Source: Dendronephthya gigantea
Lineage: Eukaryota
NCBI RefSeq assembly: GCF_004324835.1
Contig: NW_021163015.1
Location: forward strand, 2,952,323 to 3,016,322
DNA length: 64,000 nucleotides
Direction: 5' to 3'
Position 1 is the first letter of the stretch; each line of letters begins with the position of its first letter. Made by a program: the position numbers and the translations under genes. Positions 2,051 through 57,200 of this stretch are shown here, piece after piece. Under the pieces are notes generated by a model. The model did not search any database, had not been told where the DNA came from, and saw nothing but the letters and a program-made list of their open reading frames with translations.

Positions 2051-3896
2051 AAATATTTTATTGGACTGACGCTAAGGAATACGGAATGCTATTTGGAATT
2101 GATCTAATCCTAGTTTTATACAATGTTGCAAACATATTTTATACACGTCCAGCGTGCTTGAGAAAGCTTCTTTATTTCGGAAAACATTCATCACCTACCT
2201 TCAGACACACATCTCCTAAAAACCTGCTATCTGCAAGGAACAATGTAGATCTATATCACTATATGTGTCATCAACCTTTTAAAATAAAAATTTGGCTTGC
2301 AAAATATGCAAAAATCATCTAAAACAAATTTGCATTCAAAATAGTTTACAACCAATATGTATTGTCCTATTTAGTATATTTAATCTCTATGGTACAAGGA
2401 ACGGAGAGTTTTGACATATTACGTACAGAATTTGCAGGTGATCATCACCAAACAATGCAGGCCCGAATCAAACCGAAGGCTCAACATTAAGAAACAAAAT
2501 ATACAGAATTTTTACAACTATGGTTTGGGAACATTTTGACACTTCTATCATCTGCATAAAAGGCGTAAACACCTTGTCACAACGGTAATATTTTTAACTA
2601 CCATCCACCTAAGTCTCAAAGCAAAATACCGCGAGCAATTGTCTAGTAAATACTCTTGTATATGCACTTGTTCAAATCGCATTCCACACCACCAGGGTTA
2701 AGAAAAGATGAGTGCATATATTTCGAATCTTTACTATCGTTATATTGATTAAATTATTAGTTGGACGGAACTTATTCAATGCAGTTCAGGGGAAACGTTA
2801 AACGGTAGACAGTGTAGTTTTGAATCGATATAACTCTAAAGCTACGATTCAGAACTACAGTGTTGTTCTTCATGTATTGAGCGAATCTCTAGCTAAATTG
2901 GATCTCAGTGTATGTTAACAAAGATGTACACACACACGAAGACTCTTCGTAAACAACTTGAAATAACATGCACTGAAATCAGGTTTTGAACATTCTCTAA
3001 TAACTGCGCGGTATTGGCAGGGCGGGGGATTGTGTTGAGGAGCTAGAGACGCGGGGTAACGTGAGGTGCGCTAACCAACCAGAACTTGGTGCAAAATGGA
3101 CGAGAACAAAACATGCATGACCCCTCCCTCCCACGGTGTGTTCCGTACTTAAAATATAAAATGTATATCTACGTGTAGATTAATGGCTACTACTTTATAT
3201 TACGACGTATGAACAGTATAGATATATAATGTGAAGTCCAGGTTACTGATTAAAAACAATCCAACCGTAGTGATGGCCCGTGCAAACCAAAACTTGTTGT
3301 GATTCAAAAAAGAACTGCTACAAGAGTATTTCTGGGTTTTCTGTGTTGTTGGCCACAAAAAGAAACATTTCAGGAATTCATCAAATTCGTAGAGCGACGA
3401 TATGGCGGGCGATTTTATTTCGTGAAAACATAGAAACTTGTCAACCGTCGACCACAATCTAGCGACCTATATAGAGATAGAAAGATGAGCGTCACAGGCG
3501 GGTTCTTAACTACCCAATGATTATTAGCACTATCCCTAAGGGTGGAGACTGGATGGACAGCCAAGATCGGAATTTTTTCATAAAAAGCAATTTTTACTGC
3601 AGGTAAAGAGCAAAACGCAATAAAAACTGCAACTGTTAACTGAAGAGCCCAGAATTTAAAAAATGCTTACAGTGATCCTGGGTTTAACCGAGTTTAAACG
3701 AAGCACGAGATGATTTTGAAGTATTGAAATAAGTCATTACGAAAGGAAACAAGCACATACTATTGTCGAGATGACTACACGACTGCCATTTCATTCAATA
3801 CCTCAAAGTTATCATACGCTCCGTTTAATCACGGCTAAGCTCGATTATGTGAACAGTCATAAACACATAGAACCCTCTACTTCAATACTAGAAAAG

Positions 3897-12918: not shown

Positions 12919-13270
12919 TGTAGCGTTTATTGTGGGTTGTACTTTGACTGCGTGATCGAAATTTGGCGGCTTCGCATTTATGCTACAAATTATTGACACG
13001 TCTCCCTGCGAATGTAATACCTCACACATCTAGATATTACCCGTTTACTGTTAAACTCATAGATGCATTCTACTACTTCTAACACGATTTCCTGAGAAAA
13101 ATATGGATATCGCGGAAGAAATACGGAGGCAGTTTTACGTCAACAAACGTCCCGTCGGTCCCGAGCAAAGTCCCGAGTCTCGTGTCATGTTCGCGTGAAA
13201 AACTCGTGACCCCGAATTAACTTAAAAATCAAAACGAAACAAGTTAAACACGCAGCACGCACGCGGCGAG

Positions 13271-13440
13271 CAGAAAAATTTTTTGGGATCACTTGAAGGC
13301 TTGGTTACCAAGCACTGATCTATAGTTCTTACTGGACTAACATTATTAGCAACCTTTTACTTTCAGACACTGAGCTATAGTTTCACTGGACTAACATTAT
13401 TAATACCCTTTTACTTCCGGTAGTCGGCAGCGCGCTACTT
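13271..13440. repeat. Left terminal inverted repeat of the MULE-like element (contains internal direct subrepeats 'actggactaacatta')
   Basis: Aligned by eye to the reverse complement of 20760-20927. The subrepeat '…ctgagctata[g/t]tttcactggactaacatta…' is duplicated within each TIR. Confidence 0.8.
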
Positions 13441-13689
13441 CCGGCTTCAATTTTTGATCTACATTGATCTTCATTCTCCAGCAACCTCGCAAGCCAAGCT
13501 TTTCTACCTTACATACGCTCCATGATTTTACTACACAGTTTATACTCAACTGTAATATCGAAAGACGAAGCGCGGAAACAAATGGCGTGAAATCAATACA
13601 TTTTAGAACTGATTTAAACGAGGTAAACTCCCATATTATTTTTTCGGAGCATCTGAATATAGTCAGATTCAAGAACAGCAGCATGAATG

Positions 13690-14660
13690 AGGCATTTAGT
13701 TCTATATAAGATGTTCATGACCTAATAAGCAAGACTCCGGGTAAAATATGCAAAAATGCCCCCCATATTATAGGGCCATATATGTTCTTCAGTGTTCCTA
13801 GTTGTACTCAAGTATTGCCTTGATATCATTGGTCATCTTGGTTATATTATTGTTTTACAGACAAAAGTTTATGCATGTTAGGGAGGGATGATAGGGTTAG
13901 GGAACAACAATATTACCCTGACCATCGAAACTACACACACAAATCCCCCATCCCCTAGGGAAAGTTTGGTAAGTGAATCACCTATTATGCCCCACATTTC
14001 CCCAGGGTAGGGTTCCCTTTCACATTAGTGCATTAAGATATTCTTTATATGATACAGGTACAGCAGCATGATAACTGCAGTTAGTTCCATAAAATGTTCA
14101 TGACCCATTTGTCTTGAAAAAAGGGACGTAGAAGAAGACTGTTTAAATTATAATTACAGTATCTGTTTACGTTAAGATATTCTTGACATGATAGCAGCAG
14201 CATGATTACAGCATTGTGTTTCATAAAATGTTCATGACTCAATTGTCTTGAAAAAATGGAAGAACAAGAAAAGGAGACTGTTAAATATTTGTTTATGTTG
14301 CTGTGTGGTGGATCAGTGATTGATCCAGCCCTGAATTTTAGGGGAATGCACCAGGTTGATTTGAGTATGCATACCTGGGTCTTGGTGAAATGCTTTTATC
14401 AGCATTCTGATGGCTATCTGAAGACAAAATTGACCTCAGAAAAGTACTGCAATTGCTCATATCAATTTTCAATCCCACAAATGCCTACACTCTCCACGAA
14501 ATACCATATAATGCAACAGTTTAGCTGTATTTTAGCTACTAAAATCCAACACTTAACCAAAGTTTGTACCTCCTCTGCAGAGGATCCACCACTATGTTGA
14601 AACATTCTTTATATGATGCAGGAACTACAGCAACAGATGGAAGTTGTTTCTCCAATGACA
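13690..14660. repeat. Subterminal internal repeat array inside the element (3' non-coding region of the transposase gene)
   Basis: A unit of about 130 bp recurs at ~14035-14150 and ~14165-14290: '…aagatattcttt/gacatgata.cag.agcatgat.ac.gca.t…cataaaatgttcatgac.caattgtcttgaaaaaa.gga…'. Partial copies occur at ~13690 and ~14595. Confidence 0.6.
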
Positions 14661-14709
14661 TCCTATTTTGACAAGTCTATTCTTTGAACATTAAATGTTA
14701 CTCTTCACT

Positions 14710-17700
14710 TTAACGTGTATGTCCAGCGTTTGGCCTATTTAAATTAATATTCAGTGAAAGGTTTCTTTTTCTGTTTGGCTCTATTTTTCTTTTCCTAGCA
14801 GGCATTGTGCATTTATCACTTTTCCTAAAAGTCGCCTTGCGACCTGAAGGCTGTGCGAGTGAAGACTTTATACCTGACCGACGGCGCGATATTGCAGTTG
14901 GCTGTACTCTAATTCTCTTGTTTGCACGATGAAGTATTGGTAACATTTTGCAATTTGTGTTTCTGCCAAATGAGACATATGCGGTTGAGAGACTGTTGAT
15001 TGGGGCTTGTCCTCTTGCTTTATTAACGATTTTCTTATAGGTTTCAAGGTACTTGCCGTAGCATTTCACAAAATTTGGATTTCCACTGCGTAACCAAAAT
15101 TCGATGTCACTGGATACTTCTTTGTGGAGTTTGATAACGTCCTCTAGGCTTGTCTCTTGCTCTTCGTGTGTCATATTTGAACATTCAGTTTCTGTGCTAT
15201 TGGGCTCTTCATTTAATGGCACATGTATATCTCTTGCTTTCTCATCAAGAGCCTCCGGATGTGGAATCACCGGTTTTGTCGAATCGAACTTCTTTTGGTG
15301 AACATCTGCGAATTTTTCTGCGCACAAGTCCGGATGGTCTCCTATTGCCAATACCGCTAGCTTGTACTTGTCCATGTGATTTGTTGGAATAAAGTTGCTG
15401 TTGGAGACGCCGTATTTTAGTGCAACTGCAGCTTGATGGGGACAACTGTTTCCATTTTCACCTGCTGGGCAAGAACAGATTCCGATTGACGAGTTCACCT
15501 CGTAAATCTTTCCCTTCTCCTTTCTACTTGGCACATAAAACTTAAAGGGTTCAGTGCTGTCTTGCGTGATTGTGGCGAAATCAACTGTGCTAGCATTTCT
15601 ACCAAAACATCTGGATGCAATGTGCAAATTTTGAGGTTTTCCAAAAGCAAGCGATAGTAACTTACGTTGAAAATACTTGTCTAAGTCCTCAACGATAAAT
15701 CGAAATAGTTCCACCAAGTTGTATGCCCTAATTCGTCGTAATATTATGCACTTGAAGATGAAAATCATAGATTCCGTATAATTATCCGTGTTGTTACCTC
15801 TAGTGATTAGTTGTTTGCGAAGACATAAGGCCCATTCCGACTTTCTTGCCATCGCATTCTTGATGTACTTAAGAAAAATTGCATATTTCTTTGCTGTCTT
15901 GTCTTCTTTTAGTTCTGCGAATAGTTTGTTCAATATGTTTTCGCTTTCAGAAAAGACCAAATTCTGAATCAATTTCATGAGCGGTTTTCGGTCACATAAT
16001 TCTATTTTATGTTTTGACTGCCATAACCATCTCCACGCTGCTTGTAGGAAATGAAATATACAGAGAAGTAATTTTGTTGAACCCCAGGTAGTATTTAAAG
16101 CGCCCCTCTGGGCCGCGTCATCATCCGTTAAGCAAATCCTTGGCCCCTCTTGCGTACCTCGACCACCAAATGCACCCTCTGGAAATAAACTTTTTGCTTT
16201 CCCCAAACAGCTCTCGACTGTTTGCTGGGAGTTATCAGATGTGACCCAGACACATAGTGGAAGTGCTCCTGAAGGGTGGTGCGTACAAAGAAAGTATACA
16301 GGATTGTTGTGTCGGTCAATACTGGCTGATGCATCCAAGAACACCATCTCCCCAGCTTGAGGTAAAGAATGTACCCTAGCCATCAGTGGGGTAACAACAG
16401 CAAGGATTAATGGTTTTTCGGTGCACTTTGTCTTCTCATAACGTTGAACAAAGCATTTACCACCGTCCATAGAATGTCGTTTGTTATAATCTTTCACAAC
16501 ATCTTCCAACTCCAGGAACATATCCACCCCATCGGACGCTCCCTTTGTTTGCTTTCTCCATTTCTCAAACATCCTTCTTGCGTCAGTTGCAGATGGGCAA
16601 TATCGCCGGTCGGCGAGAAGCGTCATTGTCGATGGATCATTCATAAGTAACGACTCGTGATGGTGAAAAGCTTCTGCTGCAGACATGCCGCTCGCGAAGT
16701 AATCGTTAAATGTCTCCACCGTCGCTGGGAGGATTTTAGCAAAGCTCTGGAGATGAAAACAGTCGATACTATGATTGTGAGTCCACCACAACTGAACATG
16801 ACATACGTTACCAACAGAATTTGCTGGTAATAATTTAACAGACATCTTGCTTGGGCAATCTGTCTTCTTATCACGTGCTGTTGATAGCAAGTGCAGTTCC
16901 GTATCATCTGTAAAGGTATTTTTGAGGTTTGTGCCCAACCTCTTTTGACGTTTTTTTGAGCGTGTTTTTTTGGCGTCTTGTTGTTTTTTCGTCAATTTCT
17001 TCCTTTTACATTGGCAAATGTACCACTTTGTCATTAAGACTTTCACGCCTTTCCGTTGGTATCCTCCTTGCGTGTTATATTTTATATTGGTTGTTGAAGT
17101 CAGTTCCGAGACCCATGTTTTTACTTCTTCTATTGAAGTTATATTAGCAATGGTGAAGCATACTTTAAAAGCTTCTTTCGGTGCCCCTGTAAAACACTCT
17201 TTCTCCAGTTCTTCATATTCGTCAAGCTTGTACTTATAGTTTGATGGTAAAATGTTTTGTACATGCGTTGGTAAATCCGAGCTTTCGTTGCTTATTTTCT
17301 CGGTACACTCATTCACATCTGCATAGCAATGATCGTGGATGATGGAATCATGATTTGAAAAAGATAATCCTGCTGTATTTTTTGCTCTTTCGCTGTTACA
17401 AACGCCAGCTGGATCTTGAACACCAGACAACTTTACTTTTTTCGTCGGTTGAAAATCGTCGTCCGAGTCTCCGCAATGTTTCGGCGAGTTCGGACTTGAC
17501 TGCTCCAATCTCGAGGGCGTGTCTCTTCGTTTTACCCCTTTTCTACAACCCGCAGGCAAATCAGGAATCTCGTATACATTGTCATGTTCATGAGATGGAA
17601 GTTTAATTTCTAAATGAGGATCCCCAGCACTGATTTCCAAAATCAGCGAATACCTAAACGATTCAATATCTCCTTGAGTGAAATCCAGCGGAAGACCTAA

Positions 17701-19677
17701 GGAGATATGTTGAGCCCACTTCGCAACAAATACACCACAGTCATCACCATTTGTCTGCTGACTTAGATGCCGACTTGGTAAGATATAGAAAAGCCATTCT
17801 TTCCAGTCAAGAGAGAAATCTTGTGTTTTCGATATGCGTTGGGAACATTCCAAGAAATGTTGCATTCTCTGAAAACCCTGTCTTGCAGAAGCTCCTTCAT
17901 ACAAGGAGTCGAGGTACATCATAGCTCTTAACTGAGGGAATGTGGCCAATAAGCACCAGTGATTACCAAAATTTACCGCACCTAAAATTACATCACTTGA
18001 AAGAATACCATCATACATACTGTGGTACTGATTGTTTTTGAATGTCTCCATCGAAGGAGTTGTCATTTTATGAAATACGTCACTGTTTATTGTCCGCACG
18101 ATGTTACCAAAAGCTTTGCATTTCGTTTCTAGAATCCACATATAATGATTAAGTACGAAGTTATTTAACCATGATCCTGGAAGAAGACTTAAAAGATCAC
18201 TTGAAGTATATCCTTTCAATCTTACATGAGTAGGGGGAGCTTGATCTTCATGCGCTTTAAGTTTGGCATTCTTTACCTGTTGCTCTGACAGTGGCGTATA
18301 TACCAATCCCTTCTTGCTTCTTTCAGTGCGACAAACTCTTGGTAAAGAAAAGGAAGTAGACGGATGATCAACGTAATAATTTGGCGGGATCGAGTCTATT
18401 TCAAAGGATACCTGGTCTGGGGGAGCATTAGAAGTCGTGGCTGATTTATTTATCTTTCTGCTACTGTTTTTCTCGTACACCAAAATATACGCTTCTTGAT
18501 TCAGTGCCGTGAATTCCGATATCTTCAAAACTTGCGAATCGTTTAAGGAATACCATTGGCCATTGCGAAGAACACATGCTGTATAGTGACCAGACTTTGT
18601 TGTACTGCCGTGATGGGAAATAACAGCCACAAGATTGTATTGTTCCTCCAAGTTAACTTCCACATCTTCCATTTCAGATTGCATCTCTTTCATTTTCAGT
18701 ACCCCTGGATATTCGACAAACGTTTTAATTTTCCGTCCCTCCTTTGAGAACCGCAACAACTGAACACAGAAGGCATCCGGAAGTTTTTCGAACACAGTGC
18801 GTTTATACGCCTCCGTTTTCTTTTTACACCTATTTACAAAAAATGATATGACTTTTGCACCCCAAATATTGTTAGCCTCTTTTCTAATTTTAGTATCAGT
18901 GATGAGATCTAAGTTACTATATTGAACAAAGAAAAACTGTGTACTAACAGGGTTTAGTATACAGTACCTATCGCATTCATATTCATCATCCAAATGTTCA
19001 GGCTTATTCAACATCTTAATTGCAGTCTCCAAATTTGTTCCCTGCGAAGGTGTAGTTAATGTAAATTGAAAATCATGGACCAAGCATATGAACTTATTGC
19101 ACACATGCATGTGCATATGTATGTAACCAACTATTAGAAAACACACTATTTCATTGTAGTGAGTATGCAGGATTACATAATGCCTTGGTATTTTTGCTAA
19201 ATTTTTTAAATGTTTCAATTTCATCTGTCCTAGTATAGAAAGAACTAGCAAGTAAAACTGGATCACATTTATAGACTGTAAAGATCTGACCAAAATAGAG
19301 ATAAGTGGGTAGTATTGTTCTTTAGGACACCAATGTAATACCTTTTTTACAGGCAGAGGGAGCAAACTCTCAATGCTAGTGCACTTTGAGATATGACCAC
19401 AGAGAAGACACGTAACCTCACTCCTCAGGCTAAATTGGAAGGATTTTAAAAAAGAAGTATCGCAGTGCGGTGGAACAATTCCATTCTCATAATACTCCTG
19501 AGCAATTAGATTCAGTGCTTGCGTGTAATCCTGGAAAAACTCTGCGGCACATTGCTGCATTCCAGGTTGAAAGCTTTCATTAATGTTTGGCAACTGTGAT
19601 ATCAGTGAAGCTGGCCTTAAAATTCCATGACAGTTTTGTGCCTTATAACCATCAATAAACAGTTTTGTGCTGCACAA
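14710..19677 (-). CDS. Element-encoded giant protein (main exon, 1655 codons): USP deubiquitinase core + Ulp1/SENP protease + putative WRKY/GCM-like zinc finger + MULE DDE transposase + SWIM zinc finger
   Basis: - USP (C19): QQD box (MQQCAAEFFQDY), C-x-x-C (VTCLLCGHISKCTSIESLLPLPV), LRFSKEGRKIKTFVEYP, His box (YNLVAVISHHGSTTKSGHYTACVLRNGQWYSLNDSQV…AYILVYEK).
- Ulp1 (C48): LPGSWLNNFVLNHYMWIL…GNHWCLLATFPQLRAMMYLDSL…QQTNGDDCGVFVAKWA.
- Putative zinc finger: WYICQCK…CHVQLWWTHNHS.
- MULE transposase: MVFLDASASIDRHNNPVYFLCTHHPSGALPLCVWVTSDNSQQTVESCL…ICLTDDDAAQRGAL.
- SWIM: CSCPAGENGNSCPHQ. Confidence 0.85.
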   Translation of the reverse strand: MCSTKLFIDGYKAQNCHGILRPASLISQLPNINESFQPGMQQCAAEFFQDYTQALNLIAQEYYENGIVPPHCDTSFLKSFQFSLRSEVTCLLCGHISKCTSIESLLPLPVKKVLHWCPKEQYYPLISILVRSLQSINVIQFYLLVLSILGQMKLKHLKNLAKIPRHYVILHTHYNEIVCFLIVGYIHMHMHVCNKFICLVHDFQFTLTTPSQGTNLETAIKMLNKPEHLDDEYECDRYCILNPVSTQFFFVQYSNLDLITDTKIRKEANNIWGAKVISFFVNRCKKKTEAYKRTVFEKLPDAFCVQLLRFSKEGRKIKTFVEYPGVLKMKEMQSEMEDVEVNLEEQYNLVAVISHHGSTTKSGHYTACVLRNGQWYSLNDSQVLKISEFTALNQEAYILVYEKNSSRKINKSATTSNAPPDQVSFEIDSIPPNYYVDHPSTSFSLPRVCRTERSKKGLVYTPLSEQQVKNAKLKAHEDQAPPTHVRLKGYTSSDLLSLLPGSWLNNFVLNHYMWILETKCKAFGNIVRTINSDVFHKMTTPSMETFKNNQYHSMYDGILSSDVILGAVNFGNHWCLLATFPQLRAMMYLDSLYEGASARQGFQRMQHFLECSQRISKTQDFSLDWKEWLFYILPSRHLSQQTNGDDCGVFVAKWAQHISLGLPLDFTQGDIESFRYSLILEISAGDPHLEIKLPSHEHDNVYEIPDLPAGCRKGVKRRDTPSRLEQSSPNSPKHCGDSDDDFQPTKKVKLSGVQDPAGVCNSERAKNTAGLSFSNHDSIIHDHCYADVNECTEKISNESSDLPTHVQNILPSNYKYKLDEYEELEKECFTGAPKEAFKVCFTIANITSIEEVKTWVSELTSTTNIKYNTQGGYQRKGVKVLMTKWYICQCKRKKLTKKQQDAKKTRSKKRQKRLGTNLKNTFTDDTELHLLSTARDKKTDCPSKMSVKLLPANSVGNVCHVQLWWTHNHSIDCFHLQSFAKILPATVETFNDYFASGMSAAEAFHHHESLLMNDPSTMTLLADRRYCPSATDARRMFEKWRKQTKGASDGVDMFLELEDVVKDYNKRHSMDGGKCFVQRYEKTKCTEKPLILAVVTPLMARVHSLPQAGEMVFLDASASIDRHNNPVYFLCTHHPSGALPLCVWVTSDNSQQTVESCLGKAKSLFPEGAFGGRGTQEGPRICLTDDDAAQRGALNTTWGSTKLLLCIFHFLQAAWRWLWQSKHKIELCDRKPLMKLIQNLVFSESENILNKLFAELKEDKTAKKYAIFLKYIKNAMARKSEWALCLRKQLITRGNNTDNYTESMIFIFKCIILRRIRAYNLVELFRFIVEDLDKYFQRKLLSLAFGKPQNLHIASRCFGRNASTVDFATITQDSTEPFKFYVPSRKEKGKIYEVNSSIGICSCPAGENGNSCPHQAAVALKYGVSNSNFIPTNHMDKYKLAVLAIGDHPDLCAEKFADVHQKKFDSTKPVIPHPEALDEKARDIHVPLNEEPNSTETECSNMTHEEQETSLEDVIKLHKEVSSDIEFWLRSGNPNFVKCYGKYLETYKKIVNKARGQAPINSLSTAYVSFGRNTNCKMLPILHRANKRIRVQPTAISRRRSGIKSSLAQPSGRKATFRKSDKCTMPARKRKIEPNRKRNLSLNINLNRPNAGHTR

Positions 19678-20491
19678 TATACAGGGTTGACCTGTCCATA
19701 AATTAAAAATAAAGTCAATTAGACTTAGATCAGCTGTGTAAATGAGAAATATATTAACTTGTTAAATAATTTATTTATGGGCAAATAAAGCATTATTCTT
19801 TTGGTTAAATGAATGTATTTAGGTAAATAATTTTCATTATTTTCCCTCTACTATGATAAAGTGGAGTTTGTGTTTAGTACCCATTAATATCTGATCACTC
19901 ACACCCTCTGACTAACACCTATTACTGACTGCATTGGGCACATTTATTAAATATATACAAGCAATGTTCATTGTTACAGAACACTTGAACAACATTCTTG
20001 GCCAACATTTGACAAAAACCACAAAATTTTTTATAGCAAACAGCATGTATGGGAGCTTGAATTTTGATAAAGAATGAACGTTGGGTTGTTGACTAGGCAA
20101 ATTGATGTTGAGAGTGTTTGTTGTTTGTGCGTTTTAAAGAACTAATGATGCGTTCAACCAGATGTTGCGTGAACGAGTTGCGTTGAAGTGTGTCAGTAAG
20201 TTCTTTCAGATCGTTGCTGAGGCCATCTTCGGTACTGTCGTGCGTTTCCTGTTATGTTGTCAATCATGTTTGTAAATATTAATCTATTCCTTGAGTATCA
20301 CCTAACCTGTATCATATTTTACCTTATATATTTTACGATGTAAATAACAAATTCATTCGCACAGAATATGACTGTTTGCTATAAAATTTTTATTATTCAA
20401 CGTTTATTAAAAATGCTTACATATAGTTCTTATGACAACCCAGAATTACGAAAAATATAGACGAAAAGAACGGACAATAAAATATGTAAAT

Positions 20492-20645
20492 TACCGGATC
20501 TTTCCTGCAGACAACGAGTCCGGTTGTGTTCCATTTGCAAGAGTCCATTTCCGTATCGTTTAACAGATACTAATGCTTGAAGAGTACTATTAGCAAAGCA
20601 AGTGTTACCCAAGTTTTGTATTCCTTTTGGAAGTAAAGTAATCAT
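20492..20645 (-). CDS. First coding exon of the element gene: USP catalytic Cys box
   Basis: MITLLPKGIQNLGNTCFANSTLQALVSVKRYGNGLLQMEHNRTRCLQERSG. GIQNLGNTCFANSTLQAL is the canonical USP Cys box. The exon ends at a GTAATT donor. The likely acceptor 'ttatggacag|GTCAACCC' sits just upstream of the main ORF at ~19687, and joining there restores a continuous USP domain (Cys box then QQD box). Confidence 0.7.
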
Positions 20646-20759
20646 TTTTATTAATATTGAGAAAAAGCGAACGTTTACAAGAGAATCTCGAACAGCCGAA
20701 GTGAAATTTAAATATTTCGCGGGAAATGTAAATTTGGCGCGTTTTAATTTTGGTTTAAA

Positions 20760-20927
20760 AACAGGAAATCCAGATACACCGGAAGTGATACTGTATTCTA
20801 ATGTTAGTCCAGTGAAAATATAGCTCAGTGTCCGGAGGTCAAAGGTTGTTATTAATATCCGTCCAGTGGAAACTGTAGATCAGTGCTTAGTAACCAAGTC
20901 TTCAAGTGATCCCAAAAAATTTTTCTG
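20760..20927. repeat. Right terminal inverted repeat of the MULE-like element
   Basis: The reverse complement matches 13271-13440 ('cagaaaaattttttgggatcacttgaag[g/a]cttggttac[c/t]aagcactgatcta…'). Confidence 0.8.
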
Positions 20928-21235
20928 CACGCGGCGAGCCCATCCCCTTGAACTATATGAAAAACTGGATGACTTTTCTTGTAAAGTCTGAACCGGCTCA
21001 TTCGTTGCACTGGTTGCACTAAAAAAGTAGACTGTGCTGTGATAAAATGAGAAATTTACAGTGATAAATGGTATTTTCTCAACAGACCTCACTCTGCCAA
21101 GATGGTTCGTTCACCAAAATGCTGGAAATCAAGTCATAGGGACTCAAAAATACAGAATTTTTTTTGCAATAGGTTTTACAGACTCCCTACAATTACCCCA
21201 TCTTTAAATTACCAATTTCCACTTTGGATCATTTT

Positions 21236-25089: not shown

Positions 25090-26562
25090 ATGATGCAATT
25101 CATGAGAAAACCTGCTGAGTATCATAAGTCGAAGTATACATTCATGGAATCCAAGCCTAGAGCAGAATCAGTCTCTGGTCCGACCAGCCCACGACGAAAG
25201 CTATCTTCGCCGAGCAAAGATGAGTCATGGAGAAGTGACATGTTGAAAGCATTGCAGAACAGCGCTAATCCGGAACCAATTCGAATTGCGTGCATGAAAA
25301 GCAATGTTAATGGACCTGCTCATTTTGGGGAGCTGTTTCATGGTACTCTAACAAGAGATGAAGTCACAGAGTTGCTATCTGGGGGAAATGGGCGATATCT
25401 TGTTCGAGAGAGCAATAGTTCACCAGGAGATCACATACTGTCCTTCAGTACTGGTGGCAATATACTTCATTATAAGCTGTTCTATGATGCAGAAACAGCT
25501 AAATATCACACTGAGTCTGACGAGAAGACCTACAATTCACTGACCGAACTGATGGTCGATATCTTGAACATGCTACGTGTCATCCATCAGTATGGAAGTC
25601 AGATAAACGGATGTGGAATCAGCGGAAATGGAGTGGAAAAAACAACAAAAACAAAGCGTCCATCGTTCACAAAGCCACATAGTTTTCGTATTCATCAGTA
25701 TATGCATCCCAAATGGTGTGATATCTGTCACGCATTCATGTGGGGTCTAATGCATCAGGGAATGAAATGTCAGGACTGTGGCTTAAATGTTCACAAACAT
25801 TGCGTCAAAGATGTTGAAACCAACTGCGGAACCTGTACAGTTGAAACCAGAAATAGATCAGAGTCAAAGACCAAACGTCGAGGCAGACTATCTGTTGATC
25901 AAGGCAAATCTGACGAACTGTATGCTCTACTTGCAAAACACATTACATGTGGCTATCAACTGGAATGTCTAAAATATTTGTCAAGTCTTAAGCAACCAGT
26001 GGCAAACTTTGACTTAGCTACCTTAATGAACCCATGTTACTGTGATAACTGTTGCCACTTGAAGGATTTGGACACTCCTCTATGTAAAACTGGGTCGCCA
26101 CCCCAGGCATACTCGTTACCTCTGGGTTGGTGTCGATTTTGTTTGAACACACCAAAGGGGATGGCTGAGCCGGCGTCGTGGAATGTTGCATATTATTCAT
26201 TGTCTAAAGAAATGCTGCCGAGTATTCTCGAGAAAGGTTTGGGCAATAAAGCAGATTTTTTGGGCTCTGATGGAAAGATCTTTGTGAAGCTCACACCATC
26301 AATCATTTGTGCAGACCTTGACTCTCCTGTTGTAGAATATCAGGACTCTGACTCAAATGAACTCAAGGTAGCAAAGATTGCTTTACAAGTATATGTTAAA
26401 CCTGGGTCATTTCAGACCATGGGTAGAGCTGGGATCTCAACGGAGGAAATTGATCCCTATTTCAAAAGCACGGACATATACTGGGTTATACGAGATAATA
26501 ATAGTATAATACCCTTCGGAATTTTGATTAAGAGGATGAGAATGACTTATAGAAAGTCATAA
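25090..26562 (+). CDS. Intronless gene: SH2 domain + C1 (phorbol-ester/DAG-type) zinc finger + C-terminal PARP/ART-like domain with degenerate catalytic triad (tentative)
   Basis: Single 490-codon ORF.
- SH2: FHGTLTRDEVTELLSGGNGRYLVRESNSSPGDHILSFSTGGNILHYKL (FLVRES-type).
- C1: HSFRIHQYMHPKWCDICHAFMWGLMHQGMKCQDCGLNVHKHCVKDVETNCG (H-x12-C-x2-C-x13-C-x2-C-x4-H-x2-C-x7-C).
- C-terminal: AYYSLSKEMLPSILEKGL…GSDGKIFVKLTPS…DIYWVIRDNNSIIPFGILIKRM aligns to the PARP signature (HGS…ILxxGL…GKGIYFA…S.S…EYIVYD…YLL), with H replaced by Y and Y replaced by F. Confidence 0.7.
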   Translation: MMQFMRKPAEYHKSKYTFMESKPRAESVSGPTSPRRKLSSPSKDESWRSDMLKALQNSANPEPIRIACMKSNVNGPAHFGELFHGTLTRDEVTELLSGGNGRYLVRESNSSPGDHILSFSTGGNILHYKLFYDAETAKYHTESDEKTYNSLTELMVDILNMLRVIHQYGSQINGCGISGNGVEKTTKTKRPSFTKPHSFRIHQYMHPKWCDICHAFMWGLMHQGMKCQDCGLNVHKHCVKDVETNCGTCTVETRNRSESKTKRRGRLSVDQGKSDELYALLAKHITCGYQLECLKYLSSLKQPVANFDLATLMNPCYCDNCCHLKDLDTPLCKTGSPPQAYSLPLGWCRFCLNTPKGMAEPASWNVAYYSLSKEMLPSILEKGLGNKADFLGSDGKIFVKLTPSIICADLDSPVVEYQDSDSNELKVAKIALQVYVKPGSFQTMGRAGISTEEIDPYFKSTDIYWVIRDNNSIIPFGILIKRMRMTYRKS

Positions 26563-30040: not shown

Positions 30041-32355
30041 TCAACCTGTATCACTGTCGTCACTAAATGTTTCAGCCTCGATTTCATAGCACTGTTCTGT
30101 CACACCAAATTGTCTGTTCCTCGCTGCAGCTGCTGTTGCTACAATCGATGCAAACGGATTAGCGCCATAACTCATTGGCCCCATAAATGCCCGTTCTTCT
30201 GCACCACGGTCATTTGATGGTTTACAAACGACGTCTTGGATTCCGGTCATTTCATTCTCTCCATTTTCATTACATGGAAATGATTGCTCATTGTTCTGAG
30301 AAATATTTGCCTCTCCTGGAACTGTACCAGCCTGTTCTTCATCACTTGAACCGTCAACACATGATTCTTTTTCATTCTTACCACTTTTCATATCGACTCC
30401 ATATCGAGCGTCGTTCTCTTCAATCTCTTCAAAATCAGCTGTGTCTCTTCCATTGTCTTCACCCTCAACAGCGCCGAATTTCTTTAACAATAAAACCCTT
30501 GGAATTCCGACCATTTTTTCCCCATCCTTCGTTGCTAAAACAGACTTCAGTTCCTTAAGAAGATGTCTGCCTTCCTCTCTCATTTTTTCCTCTCTAAATA
30601 ATTCTTCTCTTCCTAATAATGATTCATTCTGTTTTTCATCTTCACGACCAGACGTTGTTTCTCCTTCAAACATCTGGTCTGGAACAGGTTCTGCTTCTTC
30701 CATCAAGTTGAATATCCGAGCATGCACATCTTCTTGTTCAACCAAGCTCCCACTTGTTTTTTTTTCCACGATATTTGTCTTCTCCTCAGATGGGCTAAAA
30801 GTAATTTCCTCAAGTCTATTTTGACTTTCGTGCCAACACATGCTGATTTTCTCTATCTCTTGACCAATGTTTAATATCTGCTCGTTTACCTTAGTCAGAT
30901 CGGAGCTTGCAGGGTCTTGAGTCGATTCAGAAACGAGCTTATCAAGTCTTTCTTCCATTTCAACAGACGTTTTGCAAGCCTGCTGGAGGTGTAAGGTCAA
31001 GCTACGTAGAGACAAAATGAAAGACGTGTAGACAGTTTTATCACACGGTGGTACATGTCCATGGTTTTCATCAAATATGCGAGCAGGGATATCCAATTTG
31101 TGAAATTTATAACATTGATCAAGACTATCAAACAACTTTTCCCTCCTTGTTTCAATAAATCATCAAAATATTTAAACTCCAACAACTCGTCATTTCGTTC
31201 CGACTGTTGTAAACAGATTATCGCGAGCATCAAATTTATTGCTGCACAGAACAACAATGAGGATTGGTTGCTGCCAAATGTGGCAAACACTTTCTTCAAT
31301 CTGATCAACGTGTAGTCGTGATCCTGCAAATGTTCCTCGCTCTGCATAATGCCCTCGTTTACAATCTTGTTAAGCTCTTTGGAAAGCCAACCTAAATTAC
31401 CACAGTCAGCACTGAATTTCGTATCAGGGAGTGTAATTTTCTTACGAAGCAGATCAATGTAGTCGCTCATTTTAATAAACAAGCATTTTCTTAATACCAT
31501 ACATTGCTTAATTTGGGATTCTAATCTGGTCACCGGTGCTGTAGGATTAGCAATAATATGCCCGCGACTTATAAGTTCCTTCTCCTGAATAAACAAGATT
31601 GATTTTCGTATTAGCATTAGAAATCCTGCTGTAAACTTGGTGTACTGCAGAATTAATACCATATTCTTCTTAAGGATGTTAATCTTTTTCTTCACTTGTA
31701 GAGAATACAATTTTAGAACTCCCCAAATTAAAAGAACCGAGACGAAAAAGAATGAAAAAAAATTCGACGAATTGGCGTTGGAAAAGCTACCCAAAATTAA
31801 AGCAGCCAGCATTATAGCTCCCGCAATAAACTTGCTTTCGACAATGTCTAGCAAAAAAGAGTTTTTCGCTTCTGGCAATTTGTTCACATCAGTTTTACGG
31901 TCAGAAAACACAACACTGACTTCATCGTCCTTGGTCTTGGAATCAATTGCGTTCTCTGTACATTGCTCAAATCTGTACAAAAGTTCCAAATGATCGTCTG
32001 TTAACAAGCCCGATGATTTTATTATGGCTACGCAAGAGCTGTAGCTGTAGCATGAGATCTTTTTTGATACAAAAGAGGGCAATAAAATGCCTAAAACAAA
32101 TCTTTTAGCCCAATCTATAATGTAGTTAACTCGCTCCTTTAAATTTCTGATACTAAAATTTCCGCAATCCTCTGGTCTCACGCTCCTATTGACGATGGAT
32201 TCATATAGTTCATCGCTGTTATTCAACGTTTCTACGTGAAAATCTGTAAAACCAACTTCGGATAAATGTCTATACAACGGTGAATTGTCAAAAACTACGC
32301 CTTCGTCGTCCGCCATATTGAAAATTTTCCCGATTTTAGGGTTCATTCTGTGCAA
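30041..32355 (-). CDS. Uncharacterised transmembrane + acidic/coiled-coil protein (~800 aa) encoded by two overlapping minus-strand ORFs that differ by a frameshift near 31130
   Basis: ORF 30997-32355 (MHRMNPKIGKIFNMADDEG…) contains two hydrophobic helices (FIAGAIMLAALILGSF, FFSFFFVSVLLIWGVL). ORF 30041-31135 (…FDSLDQCYKFHKLDIPARIFDENHGHVPPCDK…) is very acidic, with Glu-rich coiled-coil segments. The frames switch at a GGAGGGAAAAG run: '…FDDLLKQGG' then 'KLFDSLDQ…'. No family recognised. Confidence 0.45.
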
Positions 32356-54229: not shown

Positions 54230-57200
54230 TTGCTACAGTTCCTATCTCGCAGAATGAAGGCAGCGATCAGTATCTTTGTTCTCTACCATGCACTCGTCTC
54301 ATCGGCGTTTGATCTCTATGGTTCTATGGACGACGCTCGAAGCGCAATCATGTCTTTTTACGACTCAACGCACGTCGCACCCCGTGTTCTGGCAACGGAG
54401 AAGCCAACAGTGAACACCCCAATACCAGGTAGTTTCGTCACAAGTCTGGCAGAAGTACCAGACGTTATTCGCCCTGTTTCTGTTAAAAAATTTTCGAAAC
54501 GGAAACACACTATGGTAACATCAATGGGTGGAACGGGTCCTAGGTTTAGACCATTTCCACGGCGAAAATATAAACATCATTCTGTCATTTCTGCGTGGAG
54601 AAGACCTGCTCCTAAGTTCAAACCACTTCTCAAACCAATTCCAACCGTCGCTTTGAGAACGTCTTCCCCAGTTGTTCGCTCCAAACGAGTCTCGTTGAAC
54701 AAGTTCGCTGAAGCTATCGAAGATATTGAGAAAGCCTTGGCCGATGCGCAAATTGTGAGTCGCGTCAGGCACGACGCAACTAGGTTGAGGAAACTAAAAG
54801 ATCTTATCAAAACAGCTGTTGAGAAAAGAAGTTATCGTTTTGCGCGTAAGGCAATCGGTGAAGCGATGTTCACGATTAGAAAAATGAACGAGCAAAGGTA
54901 AGAATTGGAATTGCAAATGTGAAATATAAATGCATATTACATGAAAACGGTGTTAGATGGGCTGAACATGCCCTCGAACATGCCCTAGCTTTAAGCCTTG
55001 GCGTTTGTTCAAAAGTCGAAGTTGCGTTTGTATTTTAAGGTTGTCCTTTGAGTCATAACAGGCTAGCCTAGTTCTTACCAATTGTGTTGGCCTGTGCCTC
55101 AAAATCGTCTTATATCTAAAGTCTGGTTTCGACGCATTTCTGTCGAGACAAATGCAACTAAGACAATATAAGATGATAATCGGAAGGCGATATAACTAAA
55201 ACGAGGCTTATCATACTGTTATGTATTTGCTCAATTACACCTGACAAAAAAGGCCTAGGCTGGCGGGCAGGCAATTGATTATTTTAATGACTGTATATTT
55301 TATCAAGGAAAGCAACTGGACGTAGAAAGAGAAACATTGTCCTGTCATCAAAGGATTTTCTTGGCAGCGTTAGGCGGACAATTGGTGTATCGGCTTTCAA
55401 TGATCTTCTTGCGATGCAAGGTCAAGTCACACTCATGTTTGCCATCGACGATACGGGCAGCATGCGTGAGGAAATTGAAGCCGCAAAAAGAATCGCAACG
55501 TCTATCGTGAATCAGCAACGAGTGGAGCCGGTTGATTACATTCTGTCACCGTTTAATGACCCAGGTAATTAGCATTAGTTGCGGTCAAGTCAGTTCTACG
55601 CATGTGCTGTGTTTATGGTACACAAATAGTCAAATATTAACCTTGAAGTGCACAACATTGCTTAGTCAGACACGATGCTTCTAAATTACTTGTCGAATCT
55701 CTTGCGGCGCATCTAAGGTAACAGTTTTTTTGGTGTTTTTTTGTTAGGTACTGGTCCAGTAACCTATTGTTCAGAGACCGAAAAAGATCGATTTGTGAGA
55801 GCCATTGCTTCTCTTTCACCCAATTCTGGGGGCGATTGTCCTGAACTGGCATTCCAAGGAATGAGTGACGCAATCGACGCTGGACCTCAGCTAGACTCAC
55901 CTTTGTACGTATTCACGGATGCCGGACCAAAAGACGCAACCGAAGACAAAGTACGATACGTTAAAGAGACTGCACAGGCCCAAGGACTTGTCGTTAATTT
56001 CTTTGTTGTTCAGAATACTGCGTGTACACAAGGGGTAGACATCTCGTCGTTTCACGAAATAGCGCAAGCCACTATGGGTCAGGTTTATGAATTGAAAAAT
56101 TCTCAGGAACTTGATGATCTTCAAGGGTTGACAGCAACCTCGCTTGGAGGGACTGCTGTCGTAGCAAATGCAGTCAGTGATAATCAATCTTCGCGTAAGA
56201 AACGGAGCTCTTCCCAAACTGCCAATTCGTATTCAATCACGGTTGATGACTCTATAGACACCCTGGTTGTATCCGTGACTGGTGACAAACCCAAAGCGAA
56301 TATGTGGAGCGTGTCGCTGACCTCGCCCACGGGAACGATTGCAGGCGTCACTACCACAAGTAACTTAGACCAAGGAACCGTGTACCAGATATCCAAACCG
56401 AATGTAGGGATTTGGAATTTAGGAATCAATGCTGATCCAAATGTGAAGTATGATTTCTTTGTGAAGGGATCCAGTGCGGATAACATCGATTTTGAAGTTT
56501 ACTTTGTCAGGACCACAGTTAGAAGAGGAGTGTCTACTACAGTTCCCATCACTGCACCTTTACTAGGTAAGACTATGACCTTTGTGTATAGCTTGCGTGA
56601 TTCTTCGTTATATGACAAGATAAGTAATAAATCAAAGATGATCTGAGATAGATTACACACCACAGTTAATAGATTACACTGAGTGTGGTATTTCTGTGAG
56701 ATATTGTATGTTTATAGTTGGCAATAAATAGGATAATAAAATTTTTATATGTGGAAGAAAATATGGCGATTACTTCAAAATTTATCTTGGTCTTGTGTAG
56801 TAGTTTTTTGTTGTAGTAGTTTATTGTATAACTCCTATGAACAACTCTTCAATAATTGTGTTCATTTTCATTTCAGGCATCGAAGCTGAAGCTATCCTGA
56901 CTCTGGGTGGCGTGGGCCATGTCGACCAAAGTACTCTGAGAGCAGAACTCGTGGACTTGTGCGGCGATGTCATAACGCCAACCAGATCCGTCTCTTTCAC
57001 ATCGAAAGACAAAAAAGGGATCCGCCATTCTTTCAAATTCTTCCCACCAAATCAAGATTTCAAAATTAAGTTGAAGGGGCGTACGAAGAAAGGACATGCA
57101 TTCGAACGTATTTCTCACTCTCCCATCAAACCTGAAACTCTGATTGTTAAAGTTGTGTTCGCACGAAACGATTACACTATGACACAAGGTGGAGCAGGTT

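Follow-up and report, generated by a model that had tools for sequence, protein, structure and literature searches.

An anthozoan Mutator-like transposon predicted to encode a USP, an Ulp1/SENP-type protease and a transposase in one protein

Transposon-borne ubiquitin and SUMO proteases have precedents, and so has the idea that they serve transposition (PMC2836005, PMC9741609, PMC13317346). Among animals, Hydra and lancelet have been reported to carry Mutator elements with Ulp1, and in Trichomonas a transposase fusion with a C19 (USP) domain has been reported (both PMC2836005); with these animal cases published, the view of a preliminary description of this DNA that Ulp1-carrying MULEs are known mainly from plants does not hold. 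Helitron-like elements, too, repeatedly carry UCH and C48 domains (PMC11417382), and PMC6446971 and PMC13317346 describe the capture of host gene fragments by MULEs. No description of a triple fusion of USP, Ulp1 and transposase was found in the literature searched, in agreement with the preliminary description, and what seems to be new is the fixed combination of the three (single protease fusions and USP/OTU domains in other transposons have already been published).

The element occupies positions 13270-20928 (7,659 bp) of the window, i.e., the whole 64-kb stretch of DNA that was analysed. Its locus and complete Mutator-like structure had been recognized before, but the ends, then placed at 13271 and 20927, are corrected here. 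The terminal features are:

13261..13269, no strand: left copy of the target-site duplication (TSD), ACGCGGCGA, identical to 20929-20937
13270..13421, + strand: left terminal inverted repeat (TIR), the gene-relative 3' end of the element; begins GCAGAAAAATTTTTTGGGATCACTT; 85-87% match to the right TIR
13313..13416, + strand: two tandem ~54-nt subterminal repeat units within the left TIR, CACTGAnCTATAGTT.. and ACTGGACTAACATTA..
20778..20928, - strand: right TIR, the gene-relative 5' end of the element
20929..20937, no strand: right copy of the TSD, ACGCGGCGA

The TIRs are ~150 bp long with the tip sequence GCAG. The inverted arms (13259-13399 / 20799-20939) are 87% complementary over 141 nt and a gapped alignment reaches 13421/20778 at 85%, a match far beyond chance that bears out the long inverted ends described earlier; for the terminal 25 nt there are exactly two occurrences in the 64 kb, where 0 are expected. 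Among eight termini (the window and four related loci, from three assemblies) homology starts exactly at GCAG and there is hardly any variation in the first ~53 nt, with only 2 positions differing between the two ends of this element, while beyond the first ~70 nt the left and right TIRs are ~85% identical. The left-TIR repeat has a period of 54 (TRF, 1.9 copies, 88% matches) and the same subterminal duplication was seen in the right TIR by secondary alignments; these repeats are candidate transposase-binding sites.

The TSD is perfect (9/9 identical) and shorter than the 11-12 bp assumed previously. The literal direct repeat spans 13 nt (13259-13271 / 20927-20939) because the TIR-terminal GC is self-complementary and adjacent bases match by chance, and the length of 9 bp is fixed by related copies and an empty site. 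At the related locus L001 the TSD is the 9-mer TGGCCGCCG, which is present once in the empty paralogous site (L001 1080-1125), so that the empty site looked for by the preliminary description exists for a related copy, but with a duplication of 9 bp and not 11. This empty site shows that the family transposes by a cut-and-paste mechanism in which the target cuts are staggered by 9 bp. In L001 and L002 homology begins exactly at the TIR tip. Six independent flanking 9-mers have 72% GC versus a background of 38%, and GC-rich target sites are preferred by the family. Identical 1,326-aa ORFs were found on three contigs of a related genome, the copies being 98-99.97% identical; the proposal of recent or ongoing activity is thus supported there (near-identical copies, empty site), but is not shown for the genome of the window copy.

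The gene lies on the minus strand and comprises four exons, all introns being GT-AG, with a predicted product of 1,564 aa (not ~1700 aa from two exons, as first proposed):

20646..20777, - strand: 5' UTR and presumed promoter region, adjoining the right TIR; assigned by position only
20495..20645, - strand: coding part of exon 1; ATG at 20645; USP Cys box GIQNLGNTCFANSTLQAL
19692..20494, - strand: intron 1, 803 nt, GT..AG; 16-21 stops in every frame
19342..19691, - strand: exon 2, 350 nt; holds the QQC(D) box; 80-83% DNA identity to relatives
19042..19341, - strand: intron 2, 300 nt, GT..AG; in frame, stop-free
18968..19041, - strand: exon 3, 74 nt; stands out as a conserved island when the DNA is compared with L001, L007 and L008
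18830..18967, - strand: intron 3, 138 nt, GT..AG; in frame, stop-free
14710..18829, - strand: exon 4; USP residues 192-310, linker, Ulp1/C48, second linker, entire transposase, stop codon
13422..14709, - strand: 3' untranslated/subterminal region; short unconserved ORFs only

Neither stops nor frameshifts interrupt the 4,695-nt coding sequence, and every splice site is preserved. An uninterrupted main ORF had been described, and a stop-free ORF of 1655 aa (14710-19677, minus strand) is indeed present, but it spans introns 2 and 3 (300 and 138 nt), which happen to be in frame and without stops. Intron 2 could not be aligned with relatives in DNA comparisons. The start codon and donor site of exon 1 are kept in L001, a relative ~75% identical in protein sequence that has the same intron positions, and an independently annotated protein of Paramuricea clavata, P0439, aligns without a break over the exon 2/3 and 3/4 junctions. 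DNA identity to relatives is 77-83% from the 5' UTR region up to ~20830 and 78-81% over full-length exon 4, whose AG acceptor is at 18830-18831. The fusion of the C-terminal USP half, C48 and transposase is independent of splicing, because all three lie in the continuous stop-free exon 4 (18829-14710), whereas exons 1-3, encoding the N-terminal part of the USP, are predicted from sequence to be joined by splicing. The one-polypeptide fusion proposed at the outset is therefore found on one spliced model, with most of the domains within exon 4, in the order USP, Ulp1/SENP, CCHH zinc finger, DDE RNase-H-like core, SWIM finger and conserved C-terminal tail:

18475..20624, - strand: USP (peptidase C19) deubiquitinase domain, aa 8-310, exons 1-4
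17632..18291, - strand: Ulp1/SENP-type cysteine protease (peptidase C48), aa 372-591
14713..17250, - strand: Mutator-type transposase module, aa 719-1564
16771..17016, - strand: N-terminal zinc-chelating region of the transposase, C797, C850, H876, H878
15772..16335, - strand: DDE catalytic core, D1024, D1094, E1211
15409..15477, - strand: SWIM zinc finger, CxCx8CxH (C1310, C1312, C1321, H1323)

Both protease domains were recovered from the spliced protein, as anticipated by the preliminary description. Pfam UCH (PF00443) matches at 5e-45 across the full profile (positions 2-254 of 254; exon 1 alone 4e-9), and the catalytic residues C16, H273 and D289 as well as the zinc-ribbon CxxC pairs are present; the reported QQD box does occur in exon 2, but reads QQC here. 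The alignment with human USP36 (1.5e-34) is almost gap-free, including all three exon junctions, and USP36 is also the closest solved structure. The domain is of the USP36/42/17-like type, its closest non-transposon relatives being host USP36/USP17-like genes (~33% identity). Peptidase_C48 matches at 7e-9, with catalytic H482, D499, C556 and the oxyanion Q550 present, and aa 372-591 match SENP1 at 2e-20 (phmmer), i.e., the domain is SENP1/2-like.

The transposase module is homologous over its whole length to 2,834 animal MULE-like proteins, with E<=1e-30 for 410 of them. Its own Pfam scores are below the cut-offs (MULE 8e-4, 20.2 bits against a curated cut-off of 27.6 bits; SWIM E 0.04) but those of some homologues are above them, so the assignment to MULE and SWIM rests on homologues and the modelled fold. 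In Foldseek searches of the PDB with the AF2 model (pLDDT 75), the only significant matches were chains of the IS256-family ISCth4 transposase (E 5.6e-8 to 1.3e-6, probability 1.00). The DDE residues correspond to columns D339, D409 and E526 of alignment A3 (42 sequences) and are invariant or nearly so, the motifs fLDaS, TDD and NNTxNYxES are kept across the family and outgroups, and the SWIM-finger residues are nearly invariant; the transposase core with SWIM finger described before is thus confirmed. C797, C850, H876 and H878 are nearly invariant in the 42-sequence alignment, the motifs CPSKM and WNHNHS are conserved and the AF2 model has beta strands there. FAR1 (PF03101) was not detected on the spliced protein by Pfam search, so that the fold class of the CCHH region is putative; it is probably a DNA-binding finger of the WRKY/GCM1 type.

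The element is not unique but a member of a widespread multi-copy anthozoan family. Several other assemblies contain homologues that share its exon structure, the order of its domains and its TIR ends; named members are from octocorals (Paramuricea clavata, Dendronephthya gigantea) and stony corals (Desmophyllum pertusum, Porites lobata, Oculina patagonica), and the same gene and TIR were found at the related loci L001, L002, L003, L004, L007, L008 and L009. Further protein clusters combine UCH, C48 and MULE, and there are clusters in which near-identical and truncated copies number from tens to more than a hundred; the family is present but unannotated in public protein databases (e.g., A0A6S7GHA6). 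In a neighbour-joining tree, the transposases that bear proteases group into one clade. A distant MULE, P0044, bears a separately acquired USP domain. Relatives carry database names such as “FAR-RED ELONGATED HYPOCOTYL 3” and “sentrin-specific protease 1-like”, and echinoderm relatives match the ZSWIM1-3 RNaseH-like Pfam family. Frameshifts were found in L004, L007 and L008, and many members have decayed, since L008 is frameshifted and has no matching TSD. The catalytic residues of USP and C48 are kept in all family members. Compared with L001 (dS about 1.3), dN/dS is 0.12 overall, 0.17 for USP, 0.09 for C48 and 0.06 for the DDE core, which indicates at the sequence level that purifying selection acts on every domain (0.06-0.17); the linkers are poorly conserved (0.32 for aa 611-760).

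The locus is very probably a Mutator-superfamily (MULE, IS256-like) DNA transposon that is autonomous, appears to be intact and has a USP-Ulp1-transposase gene. That the window copy is a genuine family member turned immobile relic, by diverged ends or host silencing, is the least unlikely of the rival readings: overall identity between its TIRs is ~85%, the 64-kb window holds neither a second copy nor a MITE-like derivative, and related copies (L004, L007, L008) are frameshifted. Its intact coding sequence and splice sites, the near-identity of the conserved terminal ~53 nt, the perfect TSD and the full set of catalytic residues argue against decay. A domesticated host gene (like FHY3/FAR1 or ZSWIM genes) with repeat-like flanks would account for a long intact ORF under purifying selection, for the single copy in 64 kb, and for the names and ZSWIM1-3 matches of relatives, yet we consider it highly improbable given the intact TIRs with cross-species-conserved termini, the perfect 9-bp TSD, the retained DDE triad, the homologous copies at different loci of related genomes with homology stopping at the TIR tips, the empty site of one of them, and the large clusters of near-identical or truncated copies.

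For the proteases, capture of host USP/SENP fragments as functionless passengers, by Pack-MULE-style transduplication, is very improbable. MULEs do pick up host gene fragments, the nearest non-transposon USP relatives are ordinary host genes, and P0044 shows that capture recurs; functionless captures, however, decay fast, whereas here the two domains are full-length, share the reading frame of the transposase and are catalytically preserved in soft and stony corals, with low dN/dS and conserved intron positions within the USP domain. Clan CE includes viral maturation proteases, and the polyprotein-like layout with poorly conserved linkers would suit a C48 and/or USP that cuts the 1,564-aa precursor, as adenovirus clan-CE proteases do. 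We give this little credence, because the domains are nearest to true isopeptidases (USP36, SENP1/2), enzymes that recognise a folded ubiquitin-like domain with a Gly-Gly end, and a Pfam domain search found no ubiquitin-like domain in the protein.

If the element works as an autonomous transposon, the transposase would bind the conserved ends as well as the subterminal 54-nt repeats via its N-terminal zinc finger, and would then excise and reinsert the element. The isopeptidases, covalently tethered to it, would be delivered to the transposition complex and the element's chromatin, where both may strip ubiquitin and SUMO conjugates. Tentatively, we prefer a role in countering SUMO-/ubiquitin-dependent host restriction, which might be, e.g., SUMO-dependent heterochromatin silencing or SUMO-targeted ubiquitylation and degradation. 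Shielding of the transposase itself is a less likely role, and tuning of double-strand-break repair signalling a rather doubtful one.

Between the gene and the left TIR (13422..14709), we found no conserved second gene and nothing that resembles related elements at the DNA or protein level; this region contains loose repeats with a spacing of ~134 nt (D1-D5).

Between the terminal inverted repeats (TIRs) lies a 1,655-aa ORF (14710-19677, minus strand), which the preliminary description had taken as uninterrupted and as part of a gene of about 1700 aa made by joining two exons. Conservation against relatives is confined to four DNA blocks, every one of them bounded by GT..AG, and predicted splicing of the corresponding four exons yields a 4,695-nt frame encoding 1,564 aa. 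A single large gene is therefore retained, with a smaller product and two more exons than proposed, and the long ORF spans introns 2 and 3.

Predicted exons of the window gene
20645-20495, minus strand: exon 1
19691-19342, minus strand: exon 2
19041-18968, minus strand: exon 3
18829-14710, minus strand: exon 4

The same four exons could be built in L001, a related locus in another assembly, with each splice site at the same codon position, and the four-exon gene was also found in the related loci L004, L007, L008 and L009. The Paramuricea clavata protein P0439 (CAB3991045.1), which was annotated independently, aligns unbroken over the exon 2/3 and exon 3/4 junctions, and the alignment of the spliced USP domain with human USP36 is almost gap-free, exon junctions included. 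From USP residue 192 on, at the least, a single translation product comprises the three enzymatic modules. The element has one gene, with Ulp1 fused to the transposase, and no conserved second ORF. The 1,655-aa ORF owes its existence solely to introns 2 and 3 (300 and 138 nt) having lengths divisible by three and no in-frame stop. Both introns (19042-19341 and 18830-18967) are AT-rich, with no in-frame stops and 3-13 stops in the other frames; the chance of being stop-free was estimated by shuffling at P about 5e-4 and 0.02, respectively, or jointly with the length condition at roughly 1e-6. We rejected the reading of these stop-free stretches of the USP region as coding insertions, as they have GT-AG ends, are unconserved, and are absent from USP36 and from the relatives. 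The counterpart introns of L001 (433 and 303 nt) contain stops, and the stop-free in-frame property is thus not conserved. Since the introns are in frame and stop-free, an mRNA retaining them would still encode the C48-transposase part, and the property could reflect either chance or tolerance of intron retention. At 14.3 kb the L001 element has double the length of the window copy, the excess consisting of a ~46-bp satellite array in intron 1 and, in the 3' subterminal region, ~20 tandem copies of a ~140-bp unit (L001 6091-7598, 14117-17043); at the place corresponding to the ~140-bp array (14033-14270), the window copy shows only loose repeats spaced ~134 nt.

A Pfam scan of the predicted spliced protein placed the two proteases on the same polypeptide as the transposase, as the preliminary description had anticipated for PF00443 and PF02902.

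Domains and conserved residues of the predicted 1,564-aa protein
aa 8-310: Pfam UCH, E 5e-45, profile positions 2-254 of 254
C16, H273, D289: predicted catalytic residues of the USP domain
aa 467-590: Pfam Peptidase_C48, E 7e-9, 36 bits against a cut-off of 20.7
H482, D499, Q550, C556: predicted catalytic residues of the C48 domain (Q550, oxyanion Gln)
C797, C850, H876, H878: predicted N-terminal finger, conserved C..C..HxH
D1024, D1094, E1211: transposase core residues, invariant or nearly invariant
aa 1040-1121: Pfam MULE (PF10551), E 8e-4, 20.2 bits, below the 27.6 cut-off
aa 1310-1332: Pfam SWIM, E 0.04, below cut-off
C1310, C1312, C1321, H1323: SWIM CxCx8CxH, nearly invariant

By sequence, the best matches among solved structures were USP36 (1.5e-34) and SENP1/SENP2 (2e-20 to 7.5e-18). 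The USP region is a complete C19 domain, its Cys and His boxes included, with a predicted Cys-His-Asp triad, and the C48 region a predicted Ulp1/SENP-type domain with a His-Asp-Cys triad and the oxyanion Gln. The USP His box and Asp are kept in all relatives whose ORF extends that far, and conservation throughout the family was seen for H482, D499, Q550 and C556. For both proteases every catalytic residue is conserved in each member whose ORF reaches it. AlphaFold2 without an alignment gave an unusable model of the spliced N-terminal 602 aa (mean pLDDT 33), and the protease folds are accordingly assigned from sequence matches.

For the transposase, matches to MULE and SWIM (PF04434) were obtained, both with scores below cut-off in the window protein, and the proposed FAR1 domain (PF03101) was not detected in the spliced protein even at E<=10. 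Mutator transposases of many clades have a SWIM finger after the catalytic core, and an N-terminal DNA-binding finger of WRKY/FAR1 type is likewise typical of the superfamily. SWIM scores exceed the cut-off in homologues, as do MULE scores (P0080, 37.9; P0313, 38.3; P0036, 29.5), and the window protein matches such homologues at E 1e-50 to 1e-154. From aa 719 to 1564 the transposase module shows end-to-end homology with animal MULE-like proteins, with 2,834 matches at E<=1e-3, of which 410 reach E<=1e-30. Modelling by AlphaFold2 from an alignment of 42 sequences reached pLDDT 75 (about 90 in the core), and the sole significant PDB matches of the model in Foldseek were chains of ISCth4 (IS256 family; E 5.6e-8 to 1.3e-6, probability 1.00); the transposase query matched no PDB chain by sequence at E<=1. 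IS256 is the recognised prokaryotic relative of Mutator. ISCth4 (PDB 6xgx, 6xg8) is the closest solved structure to the predicted core, although it is a bacterial protein of about 400 aa without protease domains or a SWIM finger, and its identity to the window transposase is only ~15%. From the homologues over the cut-off, the D/D/E residues and the IS256-like predicted fold, the window protein belongs to the Mutator/MULE superfamily.

Selection was assessed by comparing the window gene with that of L001 (dS about 1.3).

dN/dS between the window and L001 genes
Overall: 0.12
USP domain: 0.17
C48 domain: 0.09
Zinc-finger region: 0.08
DDE core: 0.06
SWIM region: 0.03
Inter-domain linker, aa 611-760: 0.32

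Because dN/dS is low and the catalytic residues are conserved, the proteases are very probably kept for the benefit of the element rather than being decaying passengers.

The ends of the element were defined by comparison with related copies.

Terminal features of the element in the window
13259-13399 and 20799-20939: inverted repeat arms, 141 nt, 87% complementary
13261-13269 and 20929-20937: target-site duplication (TSD) ACGCGGCGA, 9 bp

In a gapped alignment the match between the TIRs reaches 13421/20778 at 85%, giving a TIR length of ~150 bp with 85-87% identity between ends; Mutator-superfamily TIRs are often long, at 100-200 bp or more. The 64-kb window has exactly two occurrences of the 25-nt terminus GCAGAAAAATTTTTTGGGATCACTT, one per end and inverted (chance expectation 0), and a ~54-nt unit is present twice within each TIR. 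Both flanks share a 13-nt direct repeat, GCACGCGGCGAGC, which is longer than the true TSD because the terminal GC is self-complementary and adjacent flank bases match fortuitously. The L001 element has TGGCCGCCG on either flank and a repeat tip of GCAG, and in the L001 and L002 copies, which lie at unrelated sites, homology starts exactly at GCAG. An empty site was sought, as had been suggested, and was found for L001, where an inverted paralogous stretch 4 kb upstream (...ctaagaaca-TGGCCGCCG-ctctctcgcgg...) carries the 9-mer once. From the related copies and this empty site, the element therefore spans 13270-20928 (7,659 bp). The preliminary description was right about inverted ends and a TSD; its TSD size of 11-12 bp, and any of 11-13 bp, is rejected, since the L001 flanks and empty site give 9 bp. 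The 9-bp TSD, seen in the window (ACGCGGCGA) and in L001 (TGGCCGCCG), lies within the Mutator range of ~9 bp (8-11). Occupied and empty sites show cut-and-paste movement of this Mutator family, with the target cut at a 9-bp stagger.

Aligned over eight termini (window plus four related loci; three assemblies), the first ~53 nt are nearly invariant and are followed by conserved ACTGGA and TTTTACTTCCGG motifs. As identity in the coding DNA of these elements is no higher than 78-81%, with synonymous sites saturated, the termini are evidently under constraint. The same terminal repeat is present in L007 and L008, and the short contigs L004 and L009 stop before an element end. Among the JGI metagenome contigs scanned, neither a match to the conserved TIR sequence nor a MITE-like derivative was found, and there was no such derivative within the 64-kb window. 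GC content is high in the 9 bp beside every terminus (72% at six independent sites vs 38% in the window); these 9-mers contain a GCNGC-like motif, with one flank column an invariant C (window 13261-13269/20929-20937; L001 5133-5141; L002 5341-5349; L007 11713-11721; L008 3120-3128, 16431-16439), which suggests a target-site preference. L008 was dropped as a further TSD case, its two flanks being different; this copy (ends at 3129 and 16430) has both TIRs, no TSD and a frameshifted gene, and is either decayed or rearranged or a recombinant of two elements. About 5 kb downstream of it, L008 21165-22205 holds an ORF with a THAP domain and the beginning of a transposase gene of P-element type (Tnp_P_element, TNP-like RNaseH).

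P0001 is the closest protein cluster (73% identity), with a P. clavata protein among its 23 members, and three contigs carry identical 1,326-aa ORFs. In a profile search the order UCH + C48 + MULE was recovered in many further clusters (e.g., P0317, P0320, P0321, P0347, P0491, P0500 and P0439), and family-specific HMMs found all three modules in 28 collected sequences; 21 others scored as C48 plus transposase only are nearly all N-terminally truncated ORFs. Named members come from octocorals (Paramuricea clavata, Dendronephthya gigantea) and scleractinians (Desmophyllum pertusum, Porites lobata, Oculina patagonica). A tree of the catalytic core (neighbour-joining) groups the protease-bearing proteins in one clade, and no protease domain was detected in echinoderm, thrips, snail and nemertean relatives by Pfam listings and scans. 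A distant clade member, P0044 (from a JGI metagenome contig), has its own USP, represented by the C-terminal half since the ORF begins inside the domain. Only a C48-type region was found in P0313 (by Pfam C48) and in P0007 (loci L005 and L006), the latter with an Ulp1-like H/D/C motif visible by eye and missed by Pfam. The MULE transposases of P0044 and P0007 are distant ones (26-31% identity), with the protease-like region N-terminal. The proteases of P0044, P0313 and P0007 thus point to capture by animal Mutator elements more than once, and the sequences of P0044 and P0007 (L005, L006) suggest independent acquisitions. The protease-free echinoderm relatives P0300, P0301, P0304 and P0071 match Pfam PF21056 (ZSWIM1-3 RNaseH-like domain), a hint that the vertebrate ZSWIM1/3 genes may have arisen from near this transposase clade.

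Mutator elements with Ulp1 domains are described from Hydra, lancelet and several plants (PMC2836005), so that Ulp1-carrying MULEs do occur in plants, as the preliminary description had stated, though not mainly there. The animal cases, including a cnidarian one, are MuDR elements of Hydra magnipapillata and Branchiostoma floridae with Ulp1/C48 (Repbase Reports 2008/2009, via PMC2836005); a USP/C19 domain goes unreported for them. Plant KI-MULEs and KIU-carrying VANDAL elements (Arabidopsis, melon, rice, grapevine) also have a long-conserved Ulp1, which in contrast sits in a separate VANC-type accessory gene of elements with three genes, no TIRs and no USP (PMC13317346, PMC2528002). The window element cannot be placed among them, having clear TIRs, Ulp1 and transposase joined in its only gene, and no conserved second ORF. 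It is not a Pack-MULE either, with a full transposase and captured domains that are complete and under purifying selection; Pack-MULEs are non-autonomous MULEs without transposase, whose captured fragments are usually partial and decaying.

Further cnidarian cases are Hydra MuDR-6_HM, whose transposase is fused to an OTU rather than a USP protease (as tabulated in PMC6446971), and Hydra Ginger1, of a different, integrase-like superfamily, with one C-terminal OTU or Ulp1 (PMC2836005). Both, like the window element, carry a ubiquitin/SUMO-family cysteine protease directly on the transposase, one as against two. Animal MULE clades named in PMC6446971 include Phantom, Ghost, Spectre and Curupira, and a cnidarian Ghost subgroup with 177-bp TIRs and no extra domain is listed there. 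In Helitron-like elements OTU, VTD, UCH or Peptidase_C48 domains are recurrent and position-conserved, and the portions of PMC11417382 and PMC9741609 on these domains do not describe UCH and C48 in one protein; those elements are rolling-circle, with a Rep/helicase protein, whereas the window element has a DDE transposase. A USP-type protease on a DDE transposase is given in PMC2836005, in its entry for Trichomonas vaginalis XP_001314237.1 (transposase_11 + Peptidase C19), a protist protein listed there as IS5/Harbinger-like, not Mutator, and without Ulp1. Our search of published papers (as distinct from Repbase and Dfam) recovered none on a Mutator element, or any transposase, combining USP and Ulp1. 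Single ubiquitin/SUMO-type proteases in transposons are thus known, and the combination of USP, Ulp1 and MULE transposase is apparently undescribed in the literature searched.

Transposon-borne ubiquitin/SUMO-family proteases have been noted since the mid-2000s, as Ulp1 in plant and animal Mutator elements, OTU/VTD/UCH in Helitrons, and OTU or Ulp1 in Ginger, and to our knowledge their role in transposition is still unknown. In the window family, the predicted N-terminal zinc finger would bind the 54-nt repeats as well as the conserved termini, cutting and joining would fall to the DDE core, and the tethered USP and SENP-type domains may strip ubiquitin and SUMO from proteins of the transposition complex or from local chromatin. 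We favour counter-restriction against SUMO-/ubiquitin-dependent silencing or degradation pathways as their role. As indirect precedents, KIU-carrying plant VANDAL elements cause hypomethylation of related elements, with no function known for their Ulp1 (PMC13317346), and a Helentron-encoded VTD domain has been the subject of biochemical work as a ubiquitin-directed protease (PMC9741609). Alternatively, the proteases might protect the transposase itself, or they might modulate break-repair signalling; an action of transposon Ulp1 and OTU domains in post-transposition repair was proposed by Bao et al. (PMC2836005), likewise an indirect precedent. Under counter-restriction, the host marks erased would be those of SUMO-dependent heterochromatin silencing and SUMO-targeted ubiquitin ligases, which would restrict transposons or dispose of chromatin-bound transposase. 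That the family is an anthozoan-wide, still active Mutator lineage with a permanently built-in USP and SENP counter-defence, the two enzymes acting jointly at the transposition complex to erase coupled SUMO-then-ubiquitin host marks, and with GCNGC-like targeting, is a tentative and in its entirety rather doubtful proposal. If true, it would describe a transposon-encoded antagonist of the SUMO-ubiquitin axis, steered to particular genomic sites by a GC-rich (GCNGC-like) preference.

The family is an unusually clean test case: isopeptidases of the ubiquitin type and of the SUMO type share one polypeptide with the transposase, active sites are intact in relatives, named members span soft and stony corals, and there are copies that appear intact and have defined ends. 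Open to direct measurement are the activity and substrate preference of the isopeptidases, transposition of catalytic-dead mutants, and transposase protection versus chromatin action.

Family proteins are already in public databases, uncharacterised or misnamed. Among such fragments or relatives, P0411 (Desmophyllum) is entered as 'SUMO1 sentrin specific peptidase 1', P0514 (Paramuricea) as 'sentrin-specific protease 1-like', and P0036 (Frankliniella) as 'Protein FAR-RED ELONGATED HYPOCOTYL 3'; these are probably transposon genes mis-annotated as host genes, and fragments of these elements that carry the names 'sentrin-specific protease 1-like' or 'FAR-RED ELONGATED HYPOCOTYL 3' in coral genomes should be recognised as such. 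The rest of the ORFs in the window are ordinary animal genes. An exact-sequence look-up of one of them (25090-26562) gave no hit, and the window's transposon protein was not in the protein collection either; its nearest relatives among the elements suggest an anthozoan, probably octocoral, source.

Other genes in the window
25090-26562: SH2 + C1 protein
30997-32355: vezatin
55741-56646: VWA/hemicentin-like protein
57729-58370 and 58509-59006, minus strand: Sox-type gene, HMG box split by an intron

The residues of the split HMG box in the two adjacent ORFs read RPHVKRPMNAFMVWAKK... / ...LGHIWNELP...
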